NCBI GenBank assembly: GCA_003248935.1
Contig: QFQF01000009.1
Location: 12,465 to 76,464, forward strand
Source of the DNA: Sphingobium sp.
GTDB lineage: Bacteria > Pseudomonadota > Alphaproteobacteria > Sphingomonadales > Sphingomonadaceae
Direction: 5' to 3'
DNA: 64,000 bases
Program-made: the position numbers and the translations under genes
Notes under the pieces: model-generated
Database searches by the model: none
The model's input: only the letters and a program-made list of their open reading frames with translations
Told to the model about the DNA's origin: nothing
In this document: piece by piece, positions 40,594-63,777 of the stretch
How positions within the stretch are numbered: the stretch's first letter is position 1
Layout: each line of letters begins with the position of its first letter

Positions 40594-40720
40594 TTTAAGC
40601 TGCAAATAAATGTTGATGCCTGTCGCGCAGGCCTACACAGTCGCGGCCGATGTTGCAGGTCCGCCGCCCGATCATTCCGCCTTGCGCCCCGGCCATCGTC
40701 CTGTTCGGCCATTGCGTGTC

Positions 40721-41467
40721 ATGACGCTTTCCTCCGCCGTCATCGTCCTCGCCGCGCTCCTGACCTCCATCCTGTCGGGCATATTCGGGATGGCAGGCGG
40801 TTTCATCCTGATGGGCGTGCTGGCGGCAATGCTACCCGCGACGACGACGCTCGCCCTGCACGGGGTCATACAGTTTGCCTCCAATCTCTGGCGCCTGCTG
40901 CTGCACCGGATGCACGTCGTCTGGCATGTCCTCATCCATTTCGGGCTTGGCGCGGGCGCGGCGATGGGCCTGTTCGCGCTTGTCGCCTTCACCCCGACCA
41001 AATGGCTGCTGTTCCTCATCCTCGGTATCACGCCGGTACTGGTATGGCTGCCCGAACGCTGGCTACGCCTTGATGCGCTCAACCCGCTGCATGCGCTCGC
41101 CGGCGGGTTCGCATCGACCGGACTGTCGCTGGTGTCGGGCGTATCGGGGCCGCTGACCGACCTGCTGTTCGTCAACACGAACATGACCCGGCACAGCGTG
41201 GTCGCGACGAAGGCGGCCATGCAGGCCATCGGCCACGCCTCCAAAATTCTCGTCTACGGCGCCGTCCTGCTCAGCGCGCCGTCACGCGCCGCCGTACCGC
41301 TTCCCACCGCGGCCGCCGCAGTTGCCGTGTCGATGGCGGGCATCGTCATCGGCGGCAGGATACTTGATCGCATCAGCGACCTGCACTTCAAGCGCGCGCG
41401 GCGATGGATCGTGACAGCCATCGGCCTGACCTTCCTGGTGCAGGCAGCCGCCCTCGCATTCGGATGA
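40721..41467 (+). CDS. TauE/SafE-family membrane protein
   Basis: SGIFGMAGG and SGVSGP motifs; about 8 TM helices. Confidence 0.75.
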   Translation: MTLSSAVIVLAALLTSILSGIFGMAGGFILMGVLAAMLPATTTLALHGVIQFASNLWRLLLHRMHVVWHVLIHFGLGAGAAMGLFALVAFTPTKWLLFLILGITPVLVWLPERWLRLDALNPLHALAGGFASTGLSLVSGVSGPLTDLLFVNTNMTRHSVVATKAAMQAIGHASKILVYGAVLLSAPSRAAVPLPTAAAAVAVSMAGIVIGGRILDRISDLHFKRARRWIVTAIGLTFLVQAAALAFG

Positions 41468-41616
41468 CGGGATTGGGAGATGGCGCTAAAGCTGTAGACG
41501 CAAGCCACAGCGGCTTATTTCTCCTTCTCATAAACGGTTGACGACAATGCGTTGGTGCACCGCCTTCCGCCACCCTAGCTCAGGCGTATATCCCTGCTGC
41601 AACGGAAGGCATCACC

Positions 41617-42954
41617 ATGGCCCGCTCCCCCCACCTCAAGCTCGGCTTCATCCTGCACGGCGTCGGCCGCACCTGGCATGACTGGCGCCACCCCGACCGC
41701 GACGTCAACGCCAGCACCAGCCTCACCCGCTATCAGGAGCAGGCGGCGATCGCAGAGAAGGGCAAGTTCGATTTCCTGTTCGTGGCCGACAGCCTGTCGA
41801 TCACCGAGCGGTCGAGCCCGCATTATCTGAACCGTTTCGAGCCGATCACCATATTGTCGGCCCTCGCCGCGACGACCAGCCGCATCGGCCTGGTCGGTAC
41901 GCTGACGGTCAGCTATTCCGAGCCCTTCAATGTTGCCCGCCAGTTCGCGTCGCTCGACCATCTGAGCGGCGGACGTGCGGGCTGGAACATCGTGACCTCC
42001 TGGCTTGGCGATACCGCCGCCAACTTCAGCAAGGACGAACATCCGCCGCACGCGGTCCGTTACCGGATCGCGGCCGAATATCTGGATGTGGTCCAGGGCC
42101 TGTGGGATAGCTGGGAGGACGGGGCGCACGTTGCCGACAAGGCCACCGGTCAGTTCGTCGATCCCGATCGGCTGCACCGCCTAGACCATAAGGGCGAGTT
42201 CTTCAACGTGAGGGGGCCGCTTAATATCAAGCGCACGCCGCAGGGCCAGCCCGTCATTTTCCAGGCGGGGGCGTCGGAAGACGGGCGCAACTTCGCCGCG
42301 CGCCGGGCGGAGGTGATCTTCACCCACGCCGAAAGCGAGGAACAGGGCCGCACCTATTATGCGGACGTGAAGGCGCGCGCGAAGGGTTTCGGCCGCGATC
42401 CCGATGCCCTGTTCATCCTGCCGGGTATCGCGCCGATCGTGGGGGATACCGACGAAGACGCAGAGTTGCGCTATCGTGAGCTGGCGTCGCTGGAATCGAT
42501 CGACACCGGCCTCGGCTTCCTGTCGCGGACATTCAACGACCATGATTTTCGCCAATACGACCTCGACGCACCGTTCCCCGATGTCGCCCGTTTCGGCTTC
42601 AACAGTCAGCAGAGCGGCGCGCTGCGGATACTGGCGGAGGTCGAAGCGGAAGGGTTGACCCTCCGTCAGGTCGCGGAACGGCTGGCGACGCCGCGCGGCG
42701 TGTTCGTCGGATCGGCGCGGACCGTCGCCGATCGCCTGCAACAGTGGTTCGAGAGTGGCGCCGCCGACGGCTTCGTCCTGTTCGAGCCGCTGCCCGGACA
42801 ACTGGCGCTGTTCGTCGAGCAGGTGATCCCGATCCTCCAGGAACGCGGCCCGTTCCGCGCAGAATATGAAGGCGCGACATTCCGGGAGCATCTCGGCCTG
42901 TCCGTGCCGGACAATCGCTACACCGTCAGGGCGGAGGAGCGGTCCGCCGCCTGA
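41617..42954 (+). CDS. Luciferase-like FMN-dependent monooxygenase (NtaA/SnaA/DszA family)
   Basis: FDFLFVAD, ARQFASLDHLSGGRAGWNIVTS, PVIFQAGAS. Confidence 0.9.
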   Translation: MARSPHLKLGFILHGVGRTWHDWRHPDRDVNASTSLTRYQEQAAIAEKGKFDFLFVADSLSITERSSPHYLNRFEPITILSALAATTSRIGLVGTLTVSYSEPFNVARQFASLDHLSGGRAGWNIVTSWLGDTAANFSKDEHPPHAVRYRIAAEYLDVVQGLWDSWEDGAHVADKATGQFVDPDRLHRLDHKGEFFNVRGPLNIKRTPQGQPVIFQAGASEDGRNFAARRAEVIFTHAESEEQGRTYYADVKARAKGFGRDPDALFILPGIAPIVGDTDEDAELRYRELASLESIDTGLGFLSRTFNDHDFRQYDLDAPFPDVARFGFNSQQSGALRILAEVEAEGLTLRQVAERLATPRGVFVGSARTVADRLQQWFESGAADGFVLFEPLPGQLALFVEQVIPILQERGPFRAEYEGATFREHLGLSVPDNRYTVRAEERSAA

Positions 42955-43113: not shown

Positions 43114-44682
43114 ATGACGCTCGAAGCGCAGGCGCGCGCCGCGCTCAGCCGCGGTGATCTGCCTGCCGCCGCCGCCGCCGCGAAGGCGCTTGCCCTCGAC
43201 AGTCCGGACCAGTCGGTCGGCTTCTTCCTGCTCGGCATGGCGGCCGCGGAAGCGGGCCAGGTCGCGAAGGCCGTGCCGTTGATCCAGGCGGCGGTGGAGC
43301 GTGGACCGCAGGCCGAACATCTGGCGCAACTGGCGCGGTTGCTGATCCTGCTGCGGCGGGACGGCGAGGCGGCCGATGCGGCGCGCGCGGCGATGGCGAT
43401 GGCGCCTGCCGACGCGCTGACGCTCGACACCATCGGCTGCGTGCTGGCCCGGCTGGGCGATCATGAGGCGTCGGTCGCACCATTTGCGGCGGCGGTCGCG
43501 GTGGAACCGGACAACCTCTCCTACCGCTACAATCTGGCGGCGGCGAGCGGCTTCACCGGGCGGGTAGACGAGGCACGCGCGCATTACGAGACAATCCTGA
43601 CCGCCGAACCCGGCGACGCGCGCGTGCATTATGCTCTGGCGATCCTGTCCCGCCAGACCGCACAGACCAATCATGTCCCCCGGCTGGAAGCGGCACTGGC
43701 GAACGCGCAGCGACCGGAGGATGCGCTGCGCATCCGCTATGCACTGGCGAAGGAACTGGAGGATGTCGGCCATGCCAGCGACGCCTTCCGTCACCTCGCC
43801 GCTGCCAATGCCGCGCACAAGCAGACCATACGCTATGACTTCGCACAGGATGTCGCGATCTTCGACGCGATCGAGGCGCTATTCGGCAAGTCCCGGAGCG
43901 CGCTTGCGACCGGGAGCGGCAATCCGGACGTCGCACCGATCTTCGTGATCGGCATGCCGCGCACCGGCACGACACTGGTCGACCGCATCCTCTCGTCCCA
44001 CCCCGACGTCGGGTCGGCGGGAGAACTTCAGGCAATGCCGCTCGCGGTCAAGCAGACGGCGGGCACGCGATCGCGCACCGTTATCGATCCGGAAACGGTA
44101 ACCGCGAGCGGGGATGTCGCCCCTGCCGCAATCGGCGACGCCTATCTCGCGCGCGCCGCTCACCACCGGCCGACGGGCAAGGCGCGGTTCACGGACAAGC
44201 TGCCGGCCAACTTCCTCTATGTCGGCCACATCCTGCGCGCATTGCCCAATGCCCGGATCGTCTGCCTGCGCCGCAATCCGATGGATACGATCTGGAGCAA
44301 CTACAAGAACCTGTTCGCCAGCCAGTCGGCCTATTACGCCTATTCCTACGACCTGATGGACACCGCGCGTTACTATGCGCGCTTCGACCGGCTGATGGCA
44401 TTGTGGGACAGCCTCTTTCCAGGACGCGTGCTGCAGTTGTCCTACGAGGCGCTGGTCGCCGATCAGGAAGGGGAAACCCGCCGCCTGCTCGCCCATTGCG
44501 ACCTTGGCTGGGATGATGCCTGCCTGTCATTCCATGAGAACCGGGCGGCCGTCGCGACGCCGAGCGCGGCACAGGTGCGGCGGCCAATCAATGCCGATGC
44601 CGTGGAAAGATGGCGGTCCTACGCCGACGCCCTGGAACCTGCGCGTGCCTGGCTGGAGACGCAGGGCATCGGCGTCGAATAA
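43114..44682 (+). CDS. TPR-repeat sulfotransferase
   Basis: TPR helices; FVIGMPRTGTTLVDR, TDKLPAN, TPSAAQVRRPI. Confidence 0.88.
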   Translation: MTLEAQARAALSRGDLPAAAAAAKALALDSPDQSVGFFLLGMAAAEAGQVAKAVPLIQAAVERGPQAEHLAQLARLLILLRRDGEAADAARAAMAMAPADALTLDTIGCVLARLGDHEASVAPFAAAVAVEPDNLSYRYNLAAASGFTGRVDEARAHYETILTAEPGDARVHYALAILSRQTAQTNHVPRLEAALANAQRPEDALRIRYALAKELEDVGHASDAFRHLAAANAAHKQTIRYDFAQDVAIFDAIEALFGKSRSALATGSGNPDVAPIFVIGMPRTGTTLVDRILSSHPDVGSAGELQAMPLAVKQTAGTRSRTVIDPETVTASGDVAPAAIGDAYLARAAHHRPTGKARFTDKLPANFLYVGHILRALPNARIVCLRRNPMDTIWSNYKNLFASQSAYYAYSYDLMDTARYYARFDRLMALWDSLFPGRVLQLSYEALVADQEGETRRLLAHCDLGWDDACLSFHENRAAVATPSAAQVRRPINADAVERWRSYADALEPARAWLETQGIGVE

Positions 44683-44800: not shown

Positions 44801-47221
44801 TCAGTATTTGACGCGTGCCTCGATGCCGAAGGTGCGCGGATTTGCCAAGGTGTGGTTGTAGTAGCGCACCGCAACCCCATCGTTGACACCGATACGTGAA
44901 CGGTCGTTGCTGACCGAGACTACCGTATATTTGTCGAAGATATTGTTTGCGAACAGACCGATGCTGTACTGATCCGCCTCGTAGGTCAAAGACGCACGAT
45001 GCAGGACATAGCTGGGGATCTTTTCGCCATAGGCGCGGTCCCAGCCCAGTCGGGAAACGACATTCCCGCGATAGGTTGCCGTCCAGTTGCCGATAAGAGA
45101 CCCATCCATGAACGGCATGGTGTAGGTCGCCCCAAGGCTGCCGGAGTTCTTCGCCGACCCCGGCAAGCGATCCCCGTCGAGTGCGTCGAGTTGCGTAAAT
45201 TTCGGCCGCACATCGTAATTATTCGGCACCGTGCGAATACTGACAATATTCGGCACATCCTCGGTCAGCTTAGCATCGGTGTACGAATAGCTGCCTTGGA
45301 TCGTCAGTGCCGGGATCGGCCGGAACTGGAATGAGGTCTCAAAGCCTTGAGACTTGGCTGAACCGCCGTTCACAGTAATGCCGGTAACGCCATAAAAAGT
45401 AGCGGAAGCGACCTGAATGCCCTGCCATTTGATATGGTAGACGTCGAAGTTGAACGTCAACTTCTGGTCGAGCAGCATTGCTCGAATACCGATTTCCGCA
45501 TTCTTCGTCGTATCCGGCCCATACTGCATCTCGTTCGGCAGGGCGCAAGCGTTCTGCTGATCGGCGGGTACGGGGTCAGGACAAGGCGCGACACGATTGG
45601 GACCACCGAGACGATAGCCCTTGCTGTAGGTCACATAAGCCATGAAGTCCGGCGTGAAATTGTAGGATGTGTTAAGCTTCCACACCCAGCCGTCCTTCTT
45701 GGCTTTGCCGCCAGACGGAGTGAGATCGTAAGGGCTGAAGGGATCACCGAGCAGCGGCAATACCAGCGCGCCCTGAACATTAGAGGTATATTTGAAATAG
45801 CGTGCGCCACCGGTAACCTGCCATTGCGGCGTCACCTTGAAAGTACCCTCACCGAAGATGGCCTTCTCTGTCACCTTCGATTTTGTGAAGCTCACATATT
45901 CAAGTTCCTCGGGATTGTCGGTGATTTCGTAGAATCCCGTAAGGCCAGGCACGTGCTCGGCATAATCGCTGTGATATTTCTGCTCATTGTAGAAGCCGCC
46001 GAGCACCCAGTTGAACGGGCCGCCATGGGTCGAGACAAGGCGGACTTCCTGATTGAACTGCTTGCGACGGATATCGCTTTCGCTCCAACTCGAAAAGGCC
46101 GGGAACAGTTCATAGTCATAATCGAGATCAAGAAGGAGGTCTGTATTGTCGCCCTTCGTCCGACTTCTGAACTTGGTGTATGCAGTAGTCGACACAATGT
46201 CCGCAATGCCATCTATACTCGCGTTTATCTCCATGCTCAACAGGTGAGCATGGCGATTTGTCGGTTCGACATAACGACTGGCATTCTGATATTTCCCTGT
46301 GCCCATTACGCCTGAACTATTGGACTGAGAGCCATCGGTCTTGGTCTGCTGGTAGGCATAAGTGAAATTGACACCCAAATCCGGCGTCAGTTGGAACAGC
46401 AATTGGTTACGGGTCGTGAAGGTCTTCTCGAAATTAAGATCTTTGCGACCTTTGAGATTGGCCGCATAGTCAGCGTCAGAAACGCCGTCGGTTCCGCCCG
46501 GCTGCGGCAGCGACACACCCGGCTCCTGGAGCAGCAACGTGTAGTCGATAAAACCGGGGTCGTAATAATAGCCGGTGGTCGAACGGAATGCGACGTAGTC
46601 CTTCACCAGGGGGACGTTGATTACACCGTCCACCTGATAGCCGGGTTTGCCACTGTGGCTCTTGCCGTAAAAGCGACCGTGTATCTCGCCCTCGTAATCC
46701 GTCAGGTCAGGACGGTTGGGAATGTAACGAATCGCACCCGCCAGGGTACCCAGACCGTATAGGGTTCCCTGCGGGCCGAGGAGCGTCTCGACGCGCGCGA
46801 TGTCGAGCAACTTGAAATCGTAATAAAGTGGCACTTCGCCCAGATAGATGCCCATCGCACTGTCATAGCTGCTGCCGCTGTCATTTACGTCCGAAGCGCT
46901 AAGGCCACGCAACACGATCGCACCGGCCGATCGTGGTCCCGTGTCGGAAATCGTCATGCCCGGCGTGAAATCCGCCAGATCCCGCACGTCATCGATCCGC
47001 TGGCGCGCCAATTCCTCGGCACTTACCGCCGAGATATTGATCGGCGTTTCCATGATCGTCGTGCTGCGGCGCGTGCCGGTGACGACGATGAAACCGTCGT
47101 TGGCGCCTGCCTCCTGGGCTTCCTGGGCCTCCTGCGCCATGGCCGGCATCGCGAGCGCCGTGCTGGTGAATATGGTCGCGGACAGCAGCCCCAACCTCAG
47201 TTTCGCGCGGTATGACATCAT
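44801..47221 (-). CDS. TonB-dependent receptor
   Basis: Signal peptide, FIVVTG TonB box, RVETLLGPQGTLYG, C-terminal PRTFGIEARVKY. Confidence 0.92.
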   Translation of the reverse strand: MMSYRAKLRLGLLSATIFTSTALAMPAMAQEAQEAQEAGANDGFIVVTGTRRSTTIMETPINISAVSAEELARQRIDDVRDLADFTPGMTISDTGPRSAGAIVLRGLSASDVNDSGSSYDSAMGIYLGEVPLYYDFKLLDIARVETLLGPQGTLYGLGTLAGAIRYIPNRPDLTDYEGEIHGRFYGKSHSGKPGYQVDGVINVPLVKDYVAFRSTTGYYYDPGFIDYTLLLQEPGVSLPQPGGTDGVSDADYAANLKGRKDLNFEKTFTTRNQLLFQLTPDLGVNFTYAYQQTKTDGSQSNSSGVMGTGKYQNASRYVEPTNRHAHLLSMEINASIDGIADIVSTTAYTKFRSRTKGDNTDLLLDLDYDYELFPAFSSWSESDIRRKQFNQEVRLVSTHGGPFNWVLGGFYNEQKYHSDYAEHVPGLTGFYEITDNPEELEYVSFTKSKVTEKAIFGEGTFKVTPQWQVTGGARYFKYTSNVQGALVLPLLGDPFSPYDLTPSGGKAKKDGWVWKLNTSYNFTPDFMAYVTYSKGYRLGGPNRVAPCPDPVPADQQNACALPNEMQYGPDTTKNAEIGIRAMLLDQKLTFNFDVYHIKWQGIQVASATFYGVTGITVNGGSAKSQGFETSFQFRPIPALTIQGSYSYTDAKLTEDVPNIVSIRTVPNNYDVRPKFTQLDALDGDRLPGSAKNSGSLGATYTMPFMDGSLIGNWTATYRGNVVSRLGWDRAYGEKIPSYVLHRASLTYEADQYSIGLFANNIFDKYTVVSVSNDRSRIGVNDGVAVRYYNHTLANPRTFGIEARVKY

Positions 47222-47411
47222 GCTTCCCCTTTTTATGGTACAACACTCCCGTGCCCTGACGCCCATGCGCCAGAGCCTGTTCGGCTCTTCATTCGAGGAT
47301 CTCGCGCGGTGCGCCGGCTACCGGTTTCCGGTCTGGCCCGATGCACCTGCCGCCCGACGTTTCAAATCCGTCATGTGCGGCCGATCCGATATGCCCCCCT
47401 GCCCGTCCGGG

Positions 47412-48425
47412 TCAGCCTGTCGCCGCTGATGCACCTGCGGCACGCTTGGCCCTGAACCTGTCTATCATCGGCTGGAACGGAAACAGGAACTGCTCCCGGA
47501 TCGACAGCCGCTTGCGATCGTCCTGCCCGACCAATGCCGATTCACCCTCGCGGTAGGTGCCGAACACGCGATCGATCAGGATCAGCGAATTGGCGTAGTT
47601 GCAGCGGGTATCGTCATAACCGACCGAATGGTGGAGGCTGTGGTGGCGGATCGTCGTGAAGAAAAAGGAGTAGAAGAGCGGCGGGTTCGACCGCACATTG
47701 GCGTGCGCATAGGTCGACACCACGCCCAGCACGTTGAAGGCGCAGAACGTGGCCGCCTGATCGAAATCGAACAAGGCGACGACACTCAGGCTGATAAGGA
47801 ACAGTTCGATCGGATTACCGACCGCCCCCTTCATGGCGTTCAACTGCGTGATGTGATGGTGCGGCGCGTGGGTCAGCCAGAACGGGTGGCAGTTGTGCAT
47901 CAGCCGGTGCATCCAGTACTGCCCGAACTCGATCAGGAAGACCACCATCGCGACCTGCACGACGAATGGCAGATGCGTCACCCATGGCGTGCTGATACCG
48001 AGCCACGCCTTGAGCGCCGTCAGCGGCTCCTCGGCGAAGGTGCTCGTCACCCAGGCGATCGCCGTATAGCCGAGCAATACGTAGAAGAGATCGGTCGCGA
48101 ATTCGCGCCTGTCCATGCGCCAGCCGGCATGCCGTTCCAGAACCAGTTCCAGCGCCAGCACGAACGCCGTCGTCAGACTGCCGGCAATCAGGATCGACCA
48201 TGGCTGCTTGATCCACGCTTCGGGACCAAAGGCCCAGAACAGCACCACAGCAAGGACGGTCAACGGCGGGAGCAGGTCGATCGCGAGCGTCTTGATACCA
48301 GTCGCGTTCTGACCGTCGGCGGAAGTATCGCAGGAGAGAGCAGATACCCCGTCGGAACGAACGCCATCGGCGATCGACTGAACGTCGCCTGATGATGCAG
48401 CACTAGGGGCCGGCCGTTGATCCAC
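47412..48425 (-). CDS. Sterol desaturase / fatty acid hydroxylase-family di-iron membrane enzyme
   Basis: His boxes YWMHRLMH, THAPHH, RHHSLHH, DRVFGT; AGGGGAG RBS before GTG 48425. Confidence 0.85.
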   Translation of the reverse strand: MDQRPAPSAASSGDVQSIADGVRSDGVSALSCDTSADGQNATGIKTLAIDLLPPLTVLAVVLFWAFGPEAWIKQPWSILIAGSLTTAFVLALELVLERHAGWRMDRREFATDLFYVLLGYTAIAWVTSTFAEEPLTALKAWLGISTPWVTHLPFVVQVAMVVFLIEFGQYWMHRLMHNCHPFWLTHAPHHHITQLNAMKGAVGNPIELFLISLSVVALFDFDQAATFCAFNVLGVVSTYAHANVRSNPPLFYSFFFTTIRHHSLHHSVGYDDTRCNYANSLILIDRVFGTYREGESALVGQDDRKRLSIREQFLFPFQPMIDRFRAKRAAGASAATG

Positions 48426-48516
48426 AGAAAATCTCCCCTGCCGGATCGGACACCGACCCGGCGTTTCAGATTTCTCTCTCCTGCAAACCTCGCTCTCACC
48501 GGCGATATGCACACGG

Positions 48517-48553
48517 TATTGATATTACCTAATGCGTCAAGAGTATTATTCAT
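48517..48553. promoter_or_regulatory. Operator copy B (TATTAC-N14-GTATTA) over the desaturase promoter
   Basis: tattgaTATTAC-ctaatgcgtcaaga-GTATTAttcat; minus strand reads TTGACG-N16-TACCGT. Confidence 0.75.
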
Positions 48554-48714
48554 AAGCCATTCAGCGTGAACGGCGAACCTTCTCGAGGTGCATTAATATT
48601 TCAATATATCAATTAGATGGGCCATATTCATCCGCCGATTCACCGATCCATGGCCGCTGAAACATGCGCATCCTCGGCACACTTCCCACATATCAAGGAC
48701 AGCGATTCGGCCGA

Positions 48715-49638
48715 TTATTGTTTCCCGACCGTTTCGCTCCACCAGGACAAGCTGTGCACGTCATGCGCGGTCGTCCAGATACCGGAGGGCGTGTAGCGCA
48801 GCGCGCCGCTGCCCGACGGCTTGCCCGCCCGCAATACGACCTCCGCCGCCTTCGGATCGATGACGACGAACGTCTGGTCCTCGGTCGTGCGCAGCCAGAC
48901 GTTCCCGCCACCCACATCGATGTCACCGTAGATCAACGTCTTGCCGACCTTCACGCGGGCCGTGACCGCAACCGTTGCCGGATCGACGCGCGCGACGGTG
49001 CCGTCGCCCTGCTCCTGCACCCACACGCCACCCTCACCGGCAGCAAGGAAACCCGGCTGCTTGCCGAGCGCGATCGTATGGGTCACGGCGTCGGCCTTGG
49101 GATCGATCCGCTGGAGGGTCTCGCCCTTGCCGCTGACGGCCCACAAGGCGTCGAAACCGAAGGCGAGATAGGAGGTGCCGGGCGCGACGTCGATGGACGC
49201 CGCCACCGTGTTCGTTGCCGGGTCTATCCGCGCGATCTTTCCGGTCGTTTCGCTGGGTGCCCAGATCGAACCCGCGCCCGCGACGACGTTCAGCTCGCCG
49301 CTGGGGCCGACACCGGCCGGAATGGTTGCAAGGACGCGCGCGGTCTTCGGATCGATCCGGTACACCTCGCCGCCCTTGCAGTTGGCGACCCAGAGCGAGC
49401 CGAAGGCCATCGCCATCGCGCCGCAGGGTTTGGGTACATCCACGGAGGCCTGCTTGCCCTCGGTCGACCATTGCTCGACGCGGCCCGCATTGGTGGCCCA
49501 GACCGTGTCGCCGTCGACCGCGAGGAAGTCCGCGAAACCGGGCACCGTGAACGTCAGTTCGTCCAACGCCTTGGGATCCGGCGACGCCGCCGCACAGAGC
49601 GCAGCCGCCAAAAACATCAAGCCGATCGGTCTCATCAT
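48715..49638 (-). CDS. Secreted beta-propeller protein (Vgb/YncE-like)
   Basis: Signal peptide; repeated GSLWV...RIDPxT blades. Confidence 0.75.
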   Translation of the reverse strand: MMRPIGLMFLAAALCAAASPDPKALDELTFTVPGFADFLAVDGDTVWATNAGRVEQWSTEGKQASVDVPKPCGAMAMAFGSLWVANCKGGEVYRIDPKTARVLATIPAGVGPSGELNVVAGAGSIWAPSETTGKIARIDPATNTVAASIDVAPGTSYLAFGFDALWAVSGKGETLQRIDPKADAVTHTIALGKQPGFLAAGEGGVWVQEQGDGTVARVDPATVAVTARVKVGKTLIYGDIDVGGGNVWLRTTEDQTFVVIDPKAAEVVLRAGKPSGSGALRYTPSGIWTTAHDVHSLSWWSETVGKQ

Positions 49639-49671
49639 GTGCCTGCTCCTCCTGCGCCGCGTCGTGGTGCC

Positions 49672-50673
49672 TCAGTTGTAACGATAGGGGTTCCTGTCGA
49701 TCGTCGTCGTCCCGCGCGTCTGGTTGCACAGGAAAACCGTGCCGGTGAAATAGATACCGGGCTCCGTGATGGTCTGCGCGTGGGCATAGGCCTCCCGCAA
49801 TTGCTGCACCGTCATCTCCACGGGCGCCTCGTCCGGTTGCCAGGTCATGCCATAGGCATAGTCCTGCCCGTCCTTGCTGATTTCCACATGGCAGCCCATG
49901 ACGTGCGTCACCGGATGCGTGTCACAGAATGCGATCAGCCGCTTCATGCTGTCGAACCACGGTTCCCAGAAGCTGATGTAGCAACGCCCGCGATAGAACA
50001 TGTCGCCGGTGTAGAGAATCTGCGTGTAGCTGTCGTAATAGGCGAATTCCGACACGACATGGCCGGGCGAGCCCCAGATCAGGATGTCGCGGCCGCCAAG
50101 GTCGAGCGTCACCCGCTGTTCCGGGAAGTTGGTCATGCCCCAGAAGCCGACCATCTCCTCATGGGTCTGGCCCATATAGCGGGTATTGGGGCGATCGGCG
50201 AACTGGTTGACGGCCATGTAATGGTCGCCGTGCAGGTGGCTGAAGGCAACCAGCAATTCCATGCTGGCGGGATCGCGCCCGTTACGCGCGCACCAGTCGT
50301 TGATGCATCCGTCGACGACACCGCGCAGGTCCCATTCGTTGCGCAGCTGCGTGAACCCCTCGTCCAGCAGCAACACGCGATCATTGCCGAAATAGAGCGG
50401 CGCGAAAGGAGCCTCGTAACTGTAGGCCTTGTTCTGGCGCAGGATCGCGGTGTGGGGATTGTACCAGTGGACCTGCACCGGCGGGTCGGTGTTGTCCATG
50501 CAGGAGGACGATCCGCAGATCCATTTGTCGGGAAAACCGCCCTTCGCCGGGAGGTTGTTCTTGAAGTCGATCGGTGCAGGGCGGGCCGCGGCCGACGCCG
50601 CCTGAGCGAGGCCGGGCAGCACGGCGCCGACGGCCATCGTGGCGTTGGCGGTCAGAAAGGTGCGACGATCCAT
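49672..50673 (-). CDS. Tat-exported metallo-beta-lactamase-fold hydrolase
   Basis: MDRRTFL Tat motif; SHLHGDH, PGH, TGD, GCH metal ligands. Confidence 0.88.
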   Translation of the reverse strand: MDRRTFLTANATMAVGAVLPGLAQAASAAARPAPIDFKNNLPAKGGFPDKWICGSSSCMDNTDPPVQVHWYNPHTAILRQNKAYSYEAPFAPLYFGNDRVLLLDEGFTQLRNEWDLRGVVDGCINDWCARNGRDPASMELLVAFSHLHGDHYMAVNQFADRPNTRYMGQTHEEMVGFWGMTNFPEQRVTLDLGGRDILIWGSPGHVVSEFAYYDSYTQILYTGDMFYRGRCYISFWEPWFDSMKRLIAFCDTHPVTHVMGCHVEISKDGQDYAYGMTWQPDEAPVEMTVQQLREAYAHAQTITEPGIYFTGTVFLCNQTRGTTTIDRNPYRYN

Positions 50674-50690
50674 GATGACCTCCAGTAACG

Positions 50691-60243: not shown

Positions 60244-62006
60244 CCGCGCTCGACCGGCGCGGGGTGGCCGCGATCGCCGATGCCGTCAACGGCGGGACGA
60301 CGAGCGCGCTGGCGGTTGCGGAGGAAACGCTGGACCGGCTGGCGACCTATGACGCGGTACAGCCGCAGATATGGATCAGCCGGATCGCACCAGACGTCCT
60401 GCGCGCCGCCGCCAGAGCGGTGGACGCCCGGATCGCTGCGGGCGAGCGCCTGCCGCTCGCGGGCGTACCCTTCGCGGTGAAGGACAATATCGACGTCGCC
60501 GGCTTCGAGACGACGGCCGCTTGCCCGGCCTTCGCCTATGAGCCCGGAGAGTCGGCGGGCGTTATCGAGCGTCTTATGGCTGCGGGCGCGATCTGCGTCG
60601 GCAAGACCAATCTGGACCAGTTCGCAACGGGACTTGTCGGCACCCGCAGTCCCTATGGCATTCCGCGCAACGCCTACAACCTCGCTTATGTGAGCGGCGG
60701 CTCCAGCTCCGGCTCGTCCATCGCCGTGGCGGCCGGGCTCGTTGCGTTCGCACTCGGCACCGACACGGCGGGTTCCGGCCGTGTCCCCGCCGCCTTCAAC
60801 CACCTGATCGGTTTCAAGCCGAGCAAGGGCCGGTGGAGTACCCGCGGCCTCATTCCGGCGTGCCGATCGATCGACTGCATCACGGTATTCACTGACCAGC
60901 TGTCCGATGCGCATCTGGTCGATACCGTCGCGGCAGGATTCGATCCGGCCGACCCTTATTCCAAGCCGCTGGCAGATCGACCGATAGCTCCCCGCCGGAT
61001 CGGCGTACCGCGCCCGGACCAGCGCATATGGTTCGGCGACGGCCAGTCCGAATATCTGTACGACCGCGCGATCGAAACGCTGGCACAGAGCGCCGAGATC
61101 GTTGAGATCGACATCGCCCCCCTGCTGGAGGCCGCCCGCCTGCTCTATGGCGGCCCGTGGGTCGCCGAGCGCACCGCCGCGATCGCCAATCTGCTGGCCA
61201 CCCAGCCCGACGCCATCGATGAGACGGTCCGGCAGGTGGTGCAACCCGGCCTCGACATCAGCGCGGTCGAGCTATGGAACGGCATCTATCGCCTCGCCGC
61301 GCTGAAGCGTCATGCGGACCAGATGTGGGAGGGGGTCGACCTGCTCGCCTTCCCGACCACGGGCACGACCTATAGGGTCGCGGAACTGGCGGCGGCACCG
61401 ATCGCACTCAACAGCAATCTCGGCCTCTACACCAATTTCGTGAACCTGCTCGACATGGCCGCGCTGGCCGTGCCCGCCGGCACACGAGCGAACGGAACGG
61501 GCTTCGGCATTACCCTGATCGGCCCGGCCGACACCGACCATGGCCTGCTCGCCGTCGCGCAGACCTATCTCGCGGCGGCGGACCTGCCAGCACCGCCACC
61601 ACTCGACCTGGAGGGAAAGATGGAAAGCGTGAAACTCGCCGTTGTCGGCGCGCACCTGAAGGACATGCCGCTGCACTGGCAGCTGACATCACGCGACGCG
61701 ACGTTCGTGGGCGCCTTCGAGACCGCGCCGACCTATCGTCTCTACGCCATGGCGGACAGCGTTCCTCCCAAACCCGCGCTGATCCACAGCGAGGATGGCG
61801 CCCCGATCGCGGTCGAAGTCTATGAACTGGATGTCGCGGCCTTCGGCAGCTTCGTGGTCGAGGTTCCCGCTCCCCTTGCAATCGGCACGGTGACGCTGAG
61901 CGACGGCACCAGCGTCAAGGGCTTCGTGGCCGAGCCGCGCGCCATGACCGGCGCGGAGGACATCACCCATCTCGGCGGCTGGCGCGCGTTCATCGCACGC
62001 GGCTGA
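60240..62006 (+). CDS. atzF: Allophanate hydrolase
   Basis: VKDNIDVAG, GKTNLDQFATGLVG, GGSSSGS, GTDTAGSGRVPA, C-domain VVGAHL...GGWRAF. Confidence 0.93.
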   Translation: MTALDRRGVAAIADAVNGGTTSALAVAEETLDRLATYDAVQPQIWISRIAPDVLRAAARAVDARIAAGERLPLAGVPFAVKDNIDVAGFETTAACPAFAYEPGESAGVIERLMAAGAICVGKTNLDQFATGLVGTRSPYGIPRNAYNLAYVSGGSSSGSSIAVAAGLVAFALGTDTAGSGRVPAAFNHLIGFKPSKGRWSTRGLIPACRSIDCITVFTDQLSDAHLVDTVAAGFDPADPYSKPLADRPIAPRRIGVPRPDQRIWFGDGQSEYLYDRAIETLAQSAEIVEIDIAPLLEAARLLYGGPWVAERTAAIANLLATQPDAIDETVRQVVQPGLDISAVELWNGIYRLAALKRHADQMWEGVDLLAFPTTGTTYRVAELAAAPIALNSNLGLYTNFVNLLDMAALAVPAGTRANGTGFGITLIGPADTDHGLLAVAQTYLAAADLPAPPPLDLEGKMESVKLAVVGAHLKDMPLHWQLTSRDATFVGAFETAPTYRLYAMADSVPPKPALIHSEDGAPIAVEVYELDVAAFGSFVVEVPAPLAIGTVTLSDGTSVKGFVAEPRAMTGAEDITHLGGWRAFIARG

Positions 62007-62214: not shown

Positions 62215-62724
62215 ATGTCCAACAACGCCACAACCCTAACGCATCTGCTTCTCAGTGAGCGGCCATCGCTGATCCGCAGATTGCAGCACATGCTGGGCAG
62301 CGAGCCGGCGGCGGAGGACCTGACCCAGAGCCTGTGGTTTCGTGTGCAGAAGGTCGATGACGACCCGCCCATCGTCCATCCGCGGGCCTTCCTGTATCGC
62401 CTCGCAGCGAATCTCGCGATCGATCATCTCCGCAAGCGGCAGAGCGAGGCGAGGATATTCACCGGCGATGCGCCCGATCCCGAAATCGCCTGCGACCAGC
62501 CCTCACCCGAAAAGATGCTGCTCGACAGCGATGCACTGGACCGCCTGAAAACGGCGTTCTCGCAGCTTTCGCCGCGCTGCCGCCAAGTGTTGCAACTACG
62601 CCGCATCGAAGGCATGAGCGTGGCTGATATTGCCGCCAAACTGGGCATCAGCAGGCAGATGGTCTGGCGCTACATGAACGAGGCGATGGACCACATAAGC
62701 GATCAGATGACGAACATCGATTGA
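62215..62724 (+). CDS. ECF sigma factor (FecI-like)
   Basis: AEDLTQ, RAFLYRLAANLAIDHLR, region 4 HTH; followed by a FecR-family gene. Confidence 0.9.
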   Translation: MSNNATTLTHLLLSERPSLIRRLQHMLGSEPAAEDLTQSLWFRVQKVDDDPPIVHPRAFLYRLAANLAIDHLRKRQSEARIFTGDAPDPEIACDQPSPEKMLLDSDALDRLKTAFSQLSPRCRQVLQLRRIEGMSVADIAAKLGISRQMVWRYMNEAMDHISDQMTNID

Positions 62725-62817
62725 AGATCGCAGGTTACCATTTTCCGTTCCCGCTCGTCTTGAACAGGGAGAGGCGGGAACCGCGCATCGGTTCGTCTGG
62801 TATCGGAGCGACACGCC

Positions 62818-63777
62818 ATGGATGATCTGCCGAACGATCGCAAAGCGTTGGCGCGCCAAGCCAATCACTGGCTTACCCGGCGCGACGCCGGCCTGATGAC
62901 GGCCGAGGACGACGCGGCCATGCGCGCGTGGCTGGAGGACAGTCCGGCCCATGCGGAGGCCTATGGTCGCGCGGAGTCCATTTTCTATGCGATTGCCACC
63001 CTGCCCCCAGCCGGACGATTCCCTTCCCTACGCCATCGCCGAGGCACCGGCCGTGCATGGACGGGCGGCAGGCAGTTGCGCAGGATCTGTGCTGGCTCCA
63101 TCGCTGCGGGCCTTGCCGCCCTCGCCATCGTCGGCTTGGATCTGCCCGTGCAGATCCAAGCCGACGCCATCGCCCCGACCGGGGAAAGCCGCCGCGTTCC
63201 GCTGCCCGACGGATCGACCGCGCTGCTCGATAGCGCATCGGCCATCGCTATCGATTATGACAGTGAGCGCAGGATCAGGCTGTTGCGCGGACAGGCCGCC
63301 TTCACCGTCGCGGCCGATCGCGCGCATCCGTTCGTCGTCGAGGCGCGCGGCGGCACCACGACGGCGCTGGGTACGCGCTTCATCGTAAGCCGGATCGCGC
63401 CCGCCACACAGGTCACGGTGACAGAGCACAGCGTCCGCGTGCAATCGGGCTCGGGAAGCCGGATCGTGCGCGCCGGCGCCAGCGCGCGCTACGACGGTCG
63501 CGGCGTTTCGGGGCCGCTTCCCGTGCACCTGTCGGAAGCCGACGCGTGGACGCGCGGACGCATTCGCTTCGTCAACCGGCCGCTGCGGGATGTCGTGGCC
63601 GAACTGGGACGCTATCATCGCGGCTATATCGCCATGGTCGGCCAGGGGATCGGCGACCTGCGGGTGAACGGCGTGTTTTCAACCAGCGACCCCGTCGGTG
63701 CGCTCGACATCATCGAGCGCTCGCTTGGCCTGGGATCGTACCGGATCGGTAACCGGCTGATCCTGCTGCACAGCTGA
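62818..63777 (+). CDS. FecR-family anti-sigma / signal transducer
   Basis: AWLEDSPAHAEAY, LPDGS, GTRF, AWTRGRI, ELGRY motifs. Confidence 0.9.
   Translation: MDDLPNDRKALARQANHWLTRRDAGLMTAEDDAAMRAWLEDSPAHAEAYGRAESIFYAIATLPPAGRFPSLRHRRGTGRAWTGGRQLRRICAGSIAAGLAALAIVGLDLPVQIQADAIAPTGESRRVPLPDGSTALLDSASAIAIDYDSERRIRLLRGQAAFTVAADRAHPFVVEARGGTTTALGTRFIVSRIAPATQVTVTEHSVRVQSGSGSRIVRAGASARYDGRGVSGPLPVHLSEADAWTRGRIRFVNRPLRDVVAELGRYHRGYIAMVGQGIGDLRVNGVFSTSDPVGALDIIERSLGLGSYRIGNRLILLHS

Follow-up and report, generated by a model that had tools for sequence, protein, structure and literature searches.

What switches the guanidine genes of this Sphingobium genome, and which compound feeds them? The question is raised by a 64,000-nucleotide stretch of contig QFQF01000009.1, hereafter the window, which carries genes for guanidine uptake and mineralization, a gene for a paralog of the nickel regulator NikR, and a set of genes here called the front end: a TonB-dependent receptor, a membrane di-iron hydroxylase (the desaturase), a beta-propeller protein and two hydrolases of metallo-beta-lactamase (MBL) fold, MBL1 and MBL2. 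The reading proposed is that the NikR paralog controls a guanidine regulon through one DNA motif, of consensus TATTAC-N14-GTAATA, and that the front end frees guanidine; as a whole, it is given a probability of about 0.58. All support for the regulon is comparative.

Operator sites and predicted promoters

A pattern search of the window finds operator cores at 48523-48548, 51869-51894 and 54634-54659, where the first-pass annotation had placed them, while 100 shuffled copies of the window sequence yield no match. Applied to the genome at large (3.64 Mb; GC content 65%, completeness 85%), the strict pattern returns only the three window sites; allowing one mismatch adds a single site, C1:2306, about 150–190 nt upstream of a desaturase paralog, 45% identical to the window desaturase. 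Only guanidine-cluster genes or this paralog lie behind the four sites, and no nickel gene does.

Each window site contains, on the strand of the downstream gene, a -35-like hexamer at site positions 9–14 (TTGACG, TTGCCA and TTGACG), as had been noticed at first; TTGAC does not vary in 45 sites selected for it. The site appears to overlie promoters of the form TTGACG-N16-TACCGT (desaturase), TTGCCA-N16-TAGGAT (MBL1) and, where there is an extended TG, TTGACG-N17 (regulator). The desaturase operator (element 48513..48548, minus strand) straddles a predicted promoter, with the -35 TTGACG at 48540-48535 and the -10 TACCGT at 48518-48513. The central operator (element 51859..51931, both strands) is placed between divergent promoters predicted from conservation: leftward, towards MBL1, -35 TTGCCA at 51886-51881 and -10 TAGGAT at 51864-51859; rightward, towards the genes of an ATP-binding cassette (ABC) importer and its substrate-binding protein (SBP), -35 TGGACA at 51903-51908 and -10 AATGCT at 51926-51931. 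The third operator (element 54634..54676, plus strand) falls among the final codons of the gene for the ABC ATPase and starts 43 nt before the regulator ATG. It would mark an internal promoter for regulator-cgdA-cgdB-gca-atzF (-35 TTGACG at 54642-54647), predicted to be leaderless, the ATG being at the expected +1. A shared flank, 'tattga', had been counted as part of the operator; it is the reverse complement of the spacer end plus the start of the -10 element in the leftward promoters, and is dropped.

The sites do precede the divergent MBL/ABC operons, the desaturase-TonB unit and the regulator, as originally described, with the qualification that the ABC operon has a conserved promoter of its own (TGGACA-N17-AATGCT, 51903-51931), starting 8 nt downstream of the central site. 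In distant lineages, the site immediately precedes the SBP ribosome-binding site. Repression would be the simplest reading of a layout in which the site lies across the -35 elements of three promoters (desaturase, MBL, regulator) and borders the ABC promoter, though activation may apply at the SBP promoter. Two other candidates for the SBP leader were set aside: a hairpin, whose conserved letters fit the promoter instead, and a sigma-54 promoter, discarded by eye for its unsuitable spacing.

The regulator and its tie to the operator

The regulator (54677..55186, plus strand, 169 aa) is the sole NikR_C gene revealed by profile search in the genome. It combines a ribbon-helix-helix (RHH) domain (PF01402) with a NikR_C domain (PF08753), and its nearest named relatives, about 90% identical, are Novosphingobium and Sphingobium proteins. 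The predicted fold is that of NikR: the monomer model has a predicted local distance difference test score of 86, and the top Foldseek matches are all NikR. An RHH plus a C-terminal ACT-like domain are common to the solved NikR structures from P. horikoshii (2bj1/2bj3), E. coli (1q5v/2hzv) and H. pylori (6mrj), the Pyrococcus protein being 39% identical in the fold alignment. Published NikR operators, GTATGA-N16-TCATAC and GTGTTAC-N13/14-GTAACAC (PMC545781, PMC7055735), share the same 28-bp geometry and have similar half-sites.

The differences from NikR concern the metal site and the targets. The high-affinity nickel ligands are His76, His87, His89 and Cys95 (PMC7055735); these E. coli positions correspond to T84, H95, F97 and S103, so that three of four are lost; E89, Q110 and a C-terminal LPPxH tail are specific to the clade, and the targets are guanidine genes. 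All five NCBIfam NikR models score under their cut-offs (best 98.4 bits, against 105). In a quick tree, which includes the ligand columns and a few chimeric rows, 62 of 102 near-full-length relatives, without the H-H-H-C set, fall on one side of a branch (Shimodaira-Hasegawa-like approximate likelihood ratio support 87). After removal of 11 chimeric or cut rows, E89, Q110 and P142-P143 are retained in the clade, and positions 84, 97 and 103 vary. Among 185 regulators, His95 is unvarying and the cysteine equivalent to Cys95 is lost in all; His76 and His89 are lost in most of the clade, three histidines being kept in some distant members. The DNA-reading strand R10-S12-S14 is kept in 182–184 of the 185, a near-invariance in keeping with the unchanging half-site. 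At control loci, other genes of the NikR family read H-H-H-C in 15 of 16 readable cases. To judge from these sequences, the regulator is a NikR-family variant and not a nickel sensor.

In Caulobacter crescentus, CCNA_01902 is annotated as NikR and stands at the head of a uca operon, from which a lipoprotein operon diverges (PMC8552747, PMC4117421); the uca operon is interpreted as nickel-related in PMC8552747. The transcription start of CCNA_01902 was not found in 12 of the 20 supplement files of PMC4287350. At L258 (G517:C3:1269326-1269721), in a genome without cgdB, a gene of the NikR family has H-H-I-S at the ligand positions and is possibly a further degenerate paralog.

Conservation of the operator was evaluated in the best 80 of 273 sphingomonad loci around regulator orthologs (77–91% identity, and hence related), counting sites with at most one mismatch within 500 nt upstream and excluding genes with too little flank. 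A site is found upstream of SBP in 76 out of 76, of the desaturase in 41 out of 43, of MBL1 in 38 out of 39 and of the regulator in 76 out of 101 copies. Lower frequencies are observed for a second desaturase (14 out of 28), the TonB receptor (23 out of 65), the propeller (7 out of 53), a sulfotransferase gene (3 out of 16) and the permease (1 out of 78); none is present upstream of cgdA (0/80), cgdB (0/79), the carboxylase (0/76), atzF (0/68), the ATPase (0/78), MBL2 (0/40) or a third MBL type (0/17). The N14 spacer accounts for 197 sites, any other length from 10 to 18 giving at most 7. Among the rearranged clusters listed, the site stays with the first gene of each unit. In 21 of the 80 loci (L007, L008, L013, L015 and others) the cluster holds two regulator copies, each near a site.

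The scan of the host genome and of related ones, set as a test by the first-pass annotation, finds the motif conserved upstream of orthologs. In a sample of 200 genomes of the family, 23 are regulator-positive at 66% identity or more (a 31% match in G517 being excluded), and all 23 contain the exact motif; it occurs in 10 of the 177 regulator-negative genomes, a rate not above that of a reversed-pattern control. Exact palindromic sites without a regulator are seen in G528, G565 and G486, the two sites of G528 having no recognised cluster gene nearby. The 27 cgdB-positive genomes of the sample are these 23 plus G437, G471, G560 and G573, in which no NikR-family gene is detected by profile search and no site is found in the cluster regions. 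In three of these four clusters a LysR gene adjoins SBP, the fourth contig ending early; the LysR proteins are 66–79% identical to one another and to copies in two regulator-positive genomes. Members of this LysR family lie beside guanidine genes at L127:12744-13601, L130:1782-2780, L132:7170-8192, L133:6752-7690 and L139:9895-10830. The family is a candidate second protein regulator, three of its clusters being without NikR paralog, site or riboswitch.

The association extends beyond the sphingomonads. Among the best 80 of 538 metagenome matches to a profile of distant paralogs (about 45% identical to the window regulator), 66 loci contain cgd or SBP genes, and the site is found upstream of SBP in 31 of the 32 SBP genes with upstream sequence, over GC contents from 38 to 70%. 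Distant paralogs are also found within uca/atzF clusters in two Acinetobacter records and in Asticcacaulis excentricus, with 2, 3 and 1 sites, respectively. The regulator-operator pairing is, on this comparison, old. Its distribution is patchy, since only 4 out of 401 genomes of a phylum-wide sample carry the paralog. In the 26 control loci, inspected over flanks of 1.5 kb, neither the site nor cgd/SBP genes are present.

The site thus tracks the regulator, which supports the protein-controlled regulon suggested at the outset. The paralog would be the transcription factor for TATTAC-N14-GTAATA and, by homology with NikR, may bind as a tetramer, with one RHH dimer per half-site; these comparisons make binding and repression by the paralog very probable.

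Guanidine genes and the front end

The core genes are all on the plus strand: SBP, of a urea-carboxylase-associated family (51954..53039; TIGR03427, 535 bits, cut-off 334), ABC permease (53070..53885; PF00528) and ATPase (53882..54664; PF00005), then, after the regulator, the carboxyguanidine deiminase subunits CgdA (UAAP1, DUF1989; 55183..56007; TIGR03425 above cut-off) and CgdB (UAAP2, DUF1989; 56021..56656; TIGR03424 above cut-off), a carboxylase annotated as urea carboxylase (56653..60243; TIGR02712, 1759 bits, cut-off 1304) and the allophanate hydrolase AtzF (open reading frame limits 60135..62006, true start probably near 60240; TIGR02713 above cut-off). Asp697 of the carboxylase aligns to Asn1330 of the K. 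lactis (yeast) urea enzyme (5i8i), which we take to be the specificity position in question. Asp marks guanidine enzymes and Asn urea enzymes, according to the review PMC12186494. Asp is read in 75 of 78 sphingomonad frames, the other 3 being unreadable, in 25 out of 25 readable distant frames and in all 11 further readable loci. The sequences therefore support a guanidine-type rather than a urea-type carboxylase, and the guanidine/urea carboxylase operon first described, with every core family above cut-off, stands. Its products would take up guanidine (ABC importer) and mineralize it to ammonium and CO2 (guanidine carboxylase, CgdAB, AtzF). Directly after atzF, the window holds genes for an extracytoplasmic function sigma factor of FecI type and a FecR anti-sigma factor (62215-63777), not seen in the conserved cluster.

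Riboswitch-run guanidine carboxylase operons feature the same core genes (gca, cgdAB, atzF, ABC importer) and the same Asp signature; the window cluster differs in its DNA operator, its in-operon repressor gene and its front-end genes, and in that no riboswitch is found. No guanidine riboswitch is matched by Rfam in the window, the only region searched for classes III and IV; genome-wide, class I is not found, nor is class II among 150 of 1058 candidates scored, and none is found in 15 sphingomonad loci. Protein control in place of a riboswitch, as first claimed, thus fits the window cluster; outside the sphingomonads the two often coexist. Another protein regulator beside a urea-carboxylase-type operon is MumR of the mum operon of Acinetobacter baumannii (PMC5050338): that operon is a different one, MumR is a LysR activator tied to manganese import, and no NikR-like gene is included in the operon as described in the available text.

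The front end is encoded on the minus strand. The desaturase (47412..48425, 337 aa) belongs to the fatty acid hydroxylase family (PF04116, 77.9 bits, cut-off 31), with about four hydrophobic segments and His boxes at residues 173, 186 and 261, kept in 49 orthologs; its start is most likely at 48425 rather than 48512, to judge from orthologs of 320–345 aa aligning across the whole 337 aa. The second gene of its unit encodes the TonB-dependent outer-membrane receptor (44801..47266, start possibly near 47221; Pfam plug and barrel), present in 64 of the 80 loci. The propeller protein (48715..49638), encoded after MBL1 and MBL2 in the other leftward unit and found in 53 of the 80, has a hydrophobic, signal-like N-terminal stretch and a TIGR02276 match, and faintly resembles virginiamycin B lyase (36.5 bits with Pfam Vgb_lyase, whose cut-off is 50). 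MBL2 (49672..50673) starts with a twin-arginine motif and has all its metal ligands (HxHxDH, H, D, H) in place, the RR and H-L-H-x-D-H motifs being kept in 39 orthologs. Its best fold match (Z 14.2, root-mean-square deviation 3.1, 201 aligned positions, 15% identity) is no close relative and does not single out a family: many MBL subfamilies resemble it at Z 9–14 and 9–20% identity with no clear best, and the GloB model scores 36 bits against 201. MBL1 (50691..51779), a 35% identical paralog of MBL2 by alignment, has no signal peptide and reads SGED instead of HxHxDH; it is probably non-catalytic or altered. In 17 loci a single signal-bearing MBL with an intact catalytic motif replaces the pair.

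Convergent with the TonB gene, on the plus strand, lies a sulfotransferase-family gene with tetratricopeptide repeats (TPR; 43114..44682; Pfam Sulfotransfer_3 and TPR). A homolog is present in 37 of the 80 loci and no site precedes it in the window; it is a probable peripheral member of the module. Upstream of it, again without a site, are genes for a TauE-family exporter and an NtaA/DmoA-family flavin monooxygenase (40610-42954). In about 13–16 loci, two genes are placed between propeller and sulfotransferase, one for an UrcA-family protein, the other for another small secreted protein (L076:18324-18674, L070:18774-19184).

The first-pass annotation had joined the genes from 44.8 to 51.8 kb to the guanidine regulon. 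The claim stands for the desaturase and the metallo-hydrolases, with the reservation that one of the latter is without HxHxDH. Out of 27 cgdB genomes in the family sample, 22 carry the desaturase family and 20 the MBL family, and neither is found in any of the 173 others; this confinement indicates that the upstream module belongs to the pathway. The TonB receptor appears tied less tightly: among 160 genomes, all 14 matches at 63% or more are in regulator-positive genomes, while all 5 matches at 40–42% are in genomes without cgdB. Desaturase sites occur away from the cluster, too. Of nine second-desaturase copies that are unlinked (on another contig or more than 100 kb away), six have a site with at most one mismatch, two have one with two mismatches (background 41 per genome) and one has none; chance or linkage is rejected as the cause of the desaturase sites, because unlinked copies keep them. 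Among 20 distal second-desaturase regions, 12 are without any site, several of these inside operons. In the window's own genome, outside the window (G000:C1:442-2331, L143), a second desaturase with a one-mismatch site is followed by a gene for a conserved membrane protein of 232 aa, which matches no Pfam family and recurs in about 30 loci. The second-desaturase unit is a fifth unit of the regulon.

In sphingomonads, the front end would comprise the TonB receptor, the secreted propeller, a Tat-type metallo-hydrolase paired with a degenerate one, and either one membrane di-iron hydroxylase or two. Its most likely task would be the release of guanidine from a guanidino compound that is larger or lipophilic. 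An amide-type bond may be hydrolysed and the carbon beside the guanidino nitrogen hydroxylated, the hemiaminal then falling apart; this chemistry, argued by analogy, is tentative, with slightly less than an even chance. Alkylglycerol monooxygenase, of the fatty acid hydroxylase family and sharing the PF04116 His-box di-iron architecture of the window desaturase, cleaves its substrate via hydroxylation of the carbon beside a heteroatom. The ornithine lipid hydroxylase OlsE has the same architecture, while its gene context differs, and its model NF052566 scores 74.1 against a cut-off of 475.

The closest parallel in logic is methylguanidine demethylation in Vreelandella boliviensis, where the gca operon is extended by a hydroxylase and a lyase, MgdH and MgdL (PMC12508155): the two enzymes, hydroxylase and helper, remove a substituent from guanidine, as proposed for the front end. 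Other hydroxylations beside a guanidino group are those by the ethylene-forming enzyme and by plant homoarginine hydroxylases (PMC12508155). There is no homology, however: MgdH, a 2-oxoglutarate dioxygenase, is soluble and controlled by a riboswitch, while the window oxygenase is a membrane di-iron protein accompanied by a TonB receptor and exported hydrolases, and the window cluster contains no 2-oxoglutarate dioxygenase plus lyase. Layouts resembling MgdH/MgdL, with a 2-oxoglutarate dioxygenase and a 293–295 aa hypothetical protein with a D-x-R motif, are seen at L254:12320-16492 (Acinetobacter sp. NCu2D-2), L139:4117-6077 and L137:14875-16779. At L254 the dioxygenase gene shares its run with those for an ABC pair and a small multidrug resistance (SMR) transporter, downstream of a site; that of L137 lies within a 634-aa frame and may be a fusion. 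The hypothetical proteins of L139 and L254 may correspond to MgdL, whose D49/R51 their D-x-R motif resembles; the short motif was not found in the supplements of PMC12508155. The best matches in the window's genome to the cluster-linked dioxygenases of these three loci, used for the comparison in place of the MgdH/MgdL sequences themselves, are 26–40% identical and on other contigs; the neighbour protein is unmatched.

Competing readings and significance

Several findings weigh against the proposed reading. In 5 of 8 non-sphingomonad loci tested, a guanidine riboswitch accompanies the operator: class II before uca or cgdA in four, class I in A. baumannii, where it lies 35 nt downstream of the operator and before cgdA (L255:1843-1999), and makes a second guanidine sensor redundant. 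The variability of positions 84, 97 and 103 leaves no new pocket evident there. Four of six TonB homologs at 51–56% (160 genomes) are in genomes without cgdB. The desaturase is missing from five pathway genomes and the MBL family from seven; L135-L137, which have the regulator, and both clusters of genus g283 are without either, so that the front end appears dispensable. No solved relative hints at a substrate for the desaturase, for MBL2 or for the propeller, which matches one S-layer protein. The co-occurrence counts overstate independence, because the genes are clustered and the genomes related.

Since operator and riboswitch coexist, the regulator is not merely a riboswitch substitute, and a nitrogen-status signal becomes a serious rival. 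Regulator and operator would then be the same, with glutamine, ammonium or arginine as co-repressor in the ACT-like domain and the regulon a nitrogen-scavenging package, riboswitch and regulator forming an AND gate where both are present. ACT-type domains commonly bind amino acids. The ligand of NikR is a co-repressor signalling sufficiency; operator and riboswitch stand in series; and regulon content differs by lineage, with distant loci including creatininase-family (32 of the 80) and glutamine-synthetase-like genes (46 of the 80), both lying between the ABC genes and the regulator, as at L140:14594-16836. Yet the genome has only four sites, at the guanidine cluster and one paralog, with none before other nitrogen genes, and, no riboswitch being found in sphingomonads, their pathway would have no means of sensing its substrate if the regulator were blind to guanidine; nitrogen status is judged unlikely, at about one chance in four. 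A little less probable is a real regulon whose front end remodels the envelope or modifies lipids, by amino-lipid hydroxylation or sulfation, or handles another nitrogen compound: OlsE is the only NCBIfam match of the desaturase, a sulfotransferase-family gene travels with the cluster and the second desaturase precedes a conserved membrane protein of no family. That OlsE score is, however, far under cut-off, the desaturase and MBL families are found only in guanidine-pathway genomes, under either regulator, and in G542 a single run of genes encodes a related desaturase together with an SBP paralog, a TonB receptor and a 2-oxoglutarate dioxygenase.

Two further explanations concern the regulator itself. 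The paralog might still sense a metal (nickel, zinc, manganese or iron) through His95 and other residues, matching the cluster to metal supply, as the invariance of His95, the three histidines of some distant members, the several metalloproteins of the cluster, the nickel reading of the Caulobacter operon (PMC8552747) and the database labels would have it. Against the ligand losses (the window protein keeps one of four), the absence of a site before any nickel gene in the genome and the 26 site-free control loci, this is very improbable. Binding of the motif by another factor, such as a global nitrogen regulator or a co-travelling two-component system, or its being a mere promoter feature, is hardly credible: the sites do coincide in part with promoter elements and are rich in AT within a genome rich in GC, and in about 13 loci atzF is followed by genes for a hybrid histidine kinase and a LuxR-type response regulator, under either regulator (L058:17342-18859, L031:18795-19799, L128:3462-5916), but the site vanishes exactly with the regulator while the kinase pair remains (L128, L129), and the spacer is fixed in length and free in sequence.

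For the preferred reading, a guanidine regulon under the NikR paralog, the nickel site has been lost and another small molecule would be sensed, the likeliest being guanidine itself, a substituted form of it or an intermediate of the pathway; an effector of guanidine type is given even odds. The more specific version, in which the paralog receives guanidine or a substituted guanidine directly, in a pocket around E89/Q110/LPPxH that took the place of the nickel site as it evolved from NikR, and the front end N-dealkylates a lipophilic or conjugated guanidino compound imported through TonB, is doubtful, though it is not far-fetched.

The literature searched yielded no account of the regulator, the operator or the front end, though subscription papers, RegPrecise or unsearched supplements may hold one; the available text of the 2025 guanidine reviews, PMC12186494 among them, does not mention 'NikR'. 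The family is mislabelled in databases as nickel-responsive, and at least one paper (PMC8552747) reads it in the same way. Guanidine genes have so far been known as switched by riboswitches, whereas here a protein and one conserved DNA site appear in control: the regulon supplies a candidate regulator, a 28-bp site and targets, at a time when a direct guanidine receptor protein is listed by a 2025 review as a class not yet found. In the front end there may be enzymes that produce guanidine out of a larger compound, which bears on the source of guanidine in the environment and possibly on the breakdown of alkylguanidine biocides. An N-dealkylating front end, if real, would be an unrecognised natural source of free guanidine.

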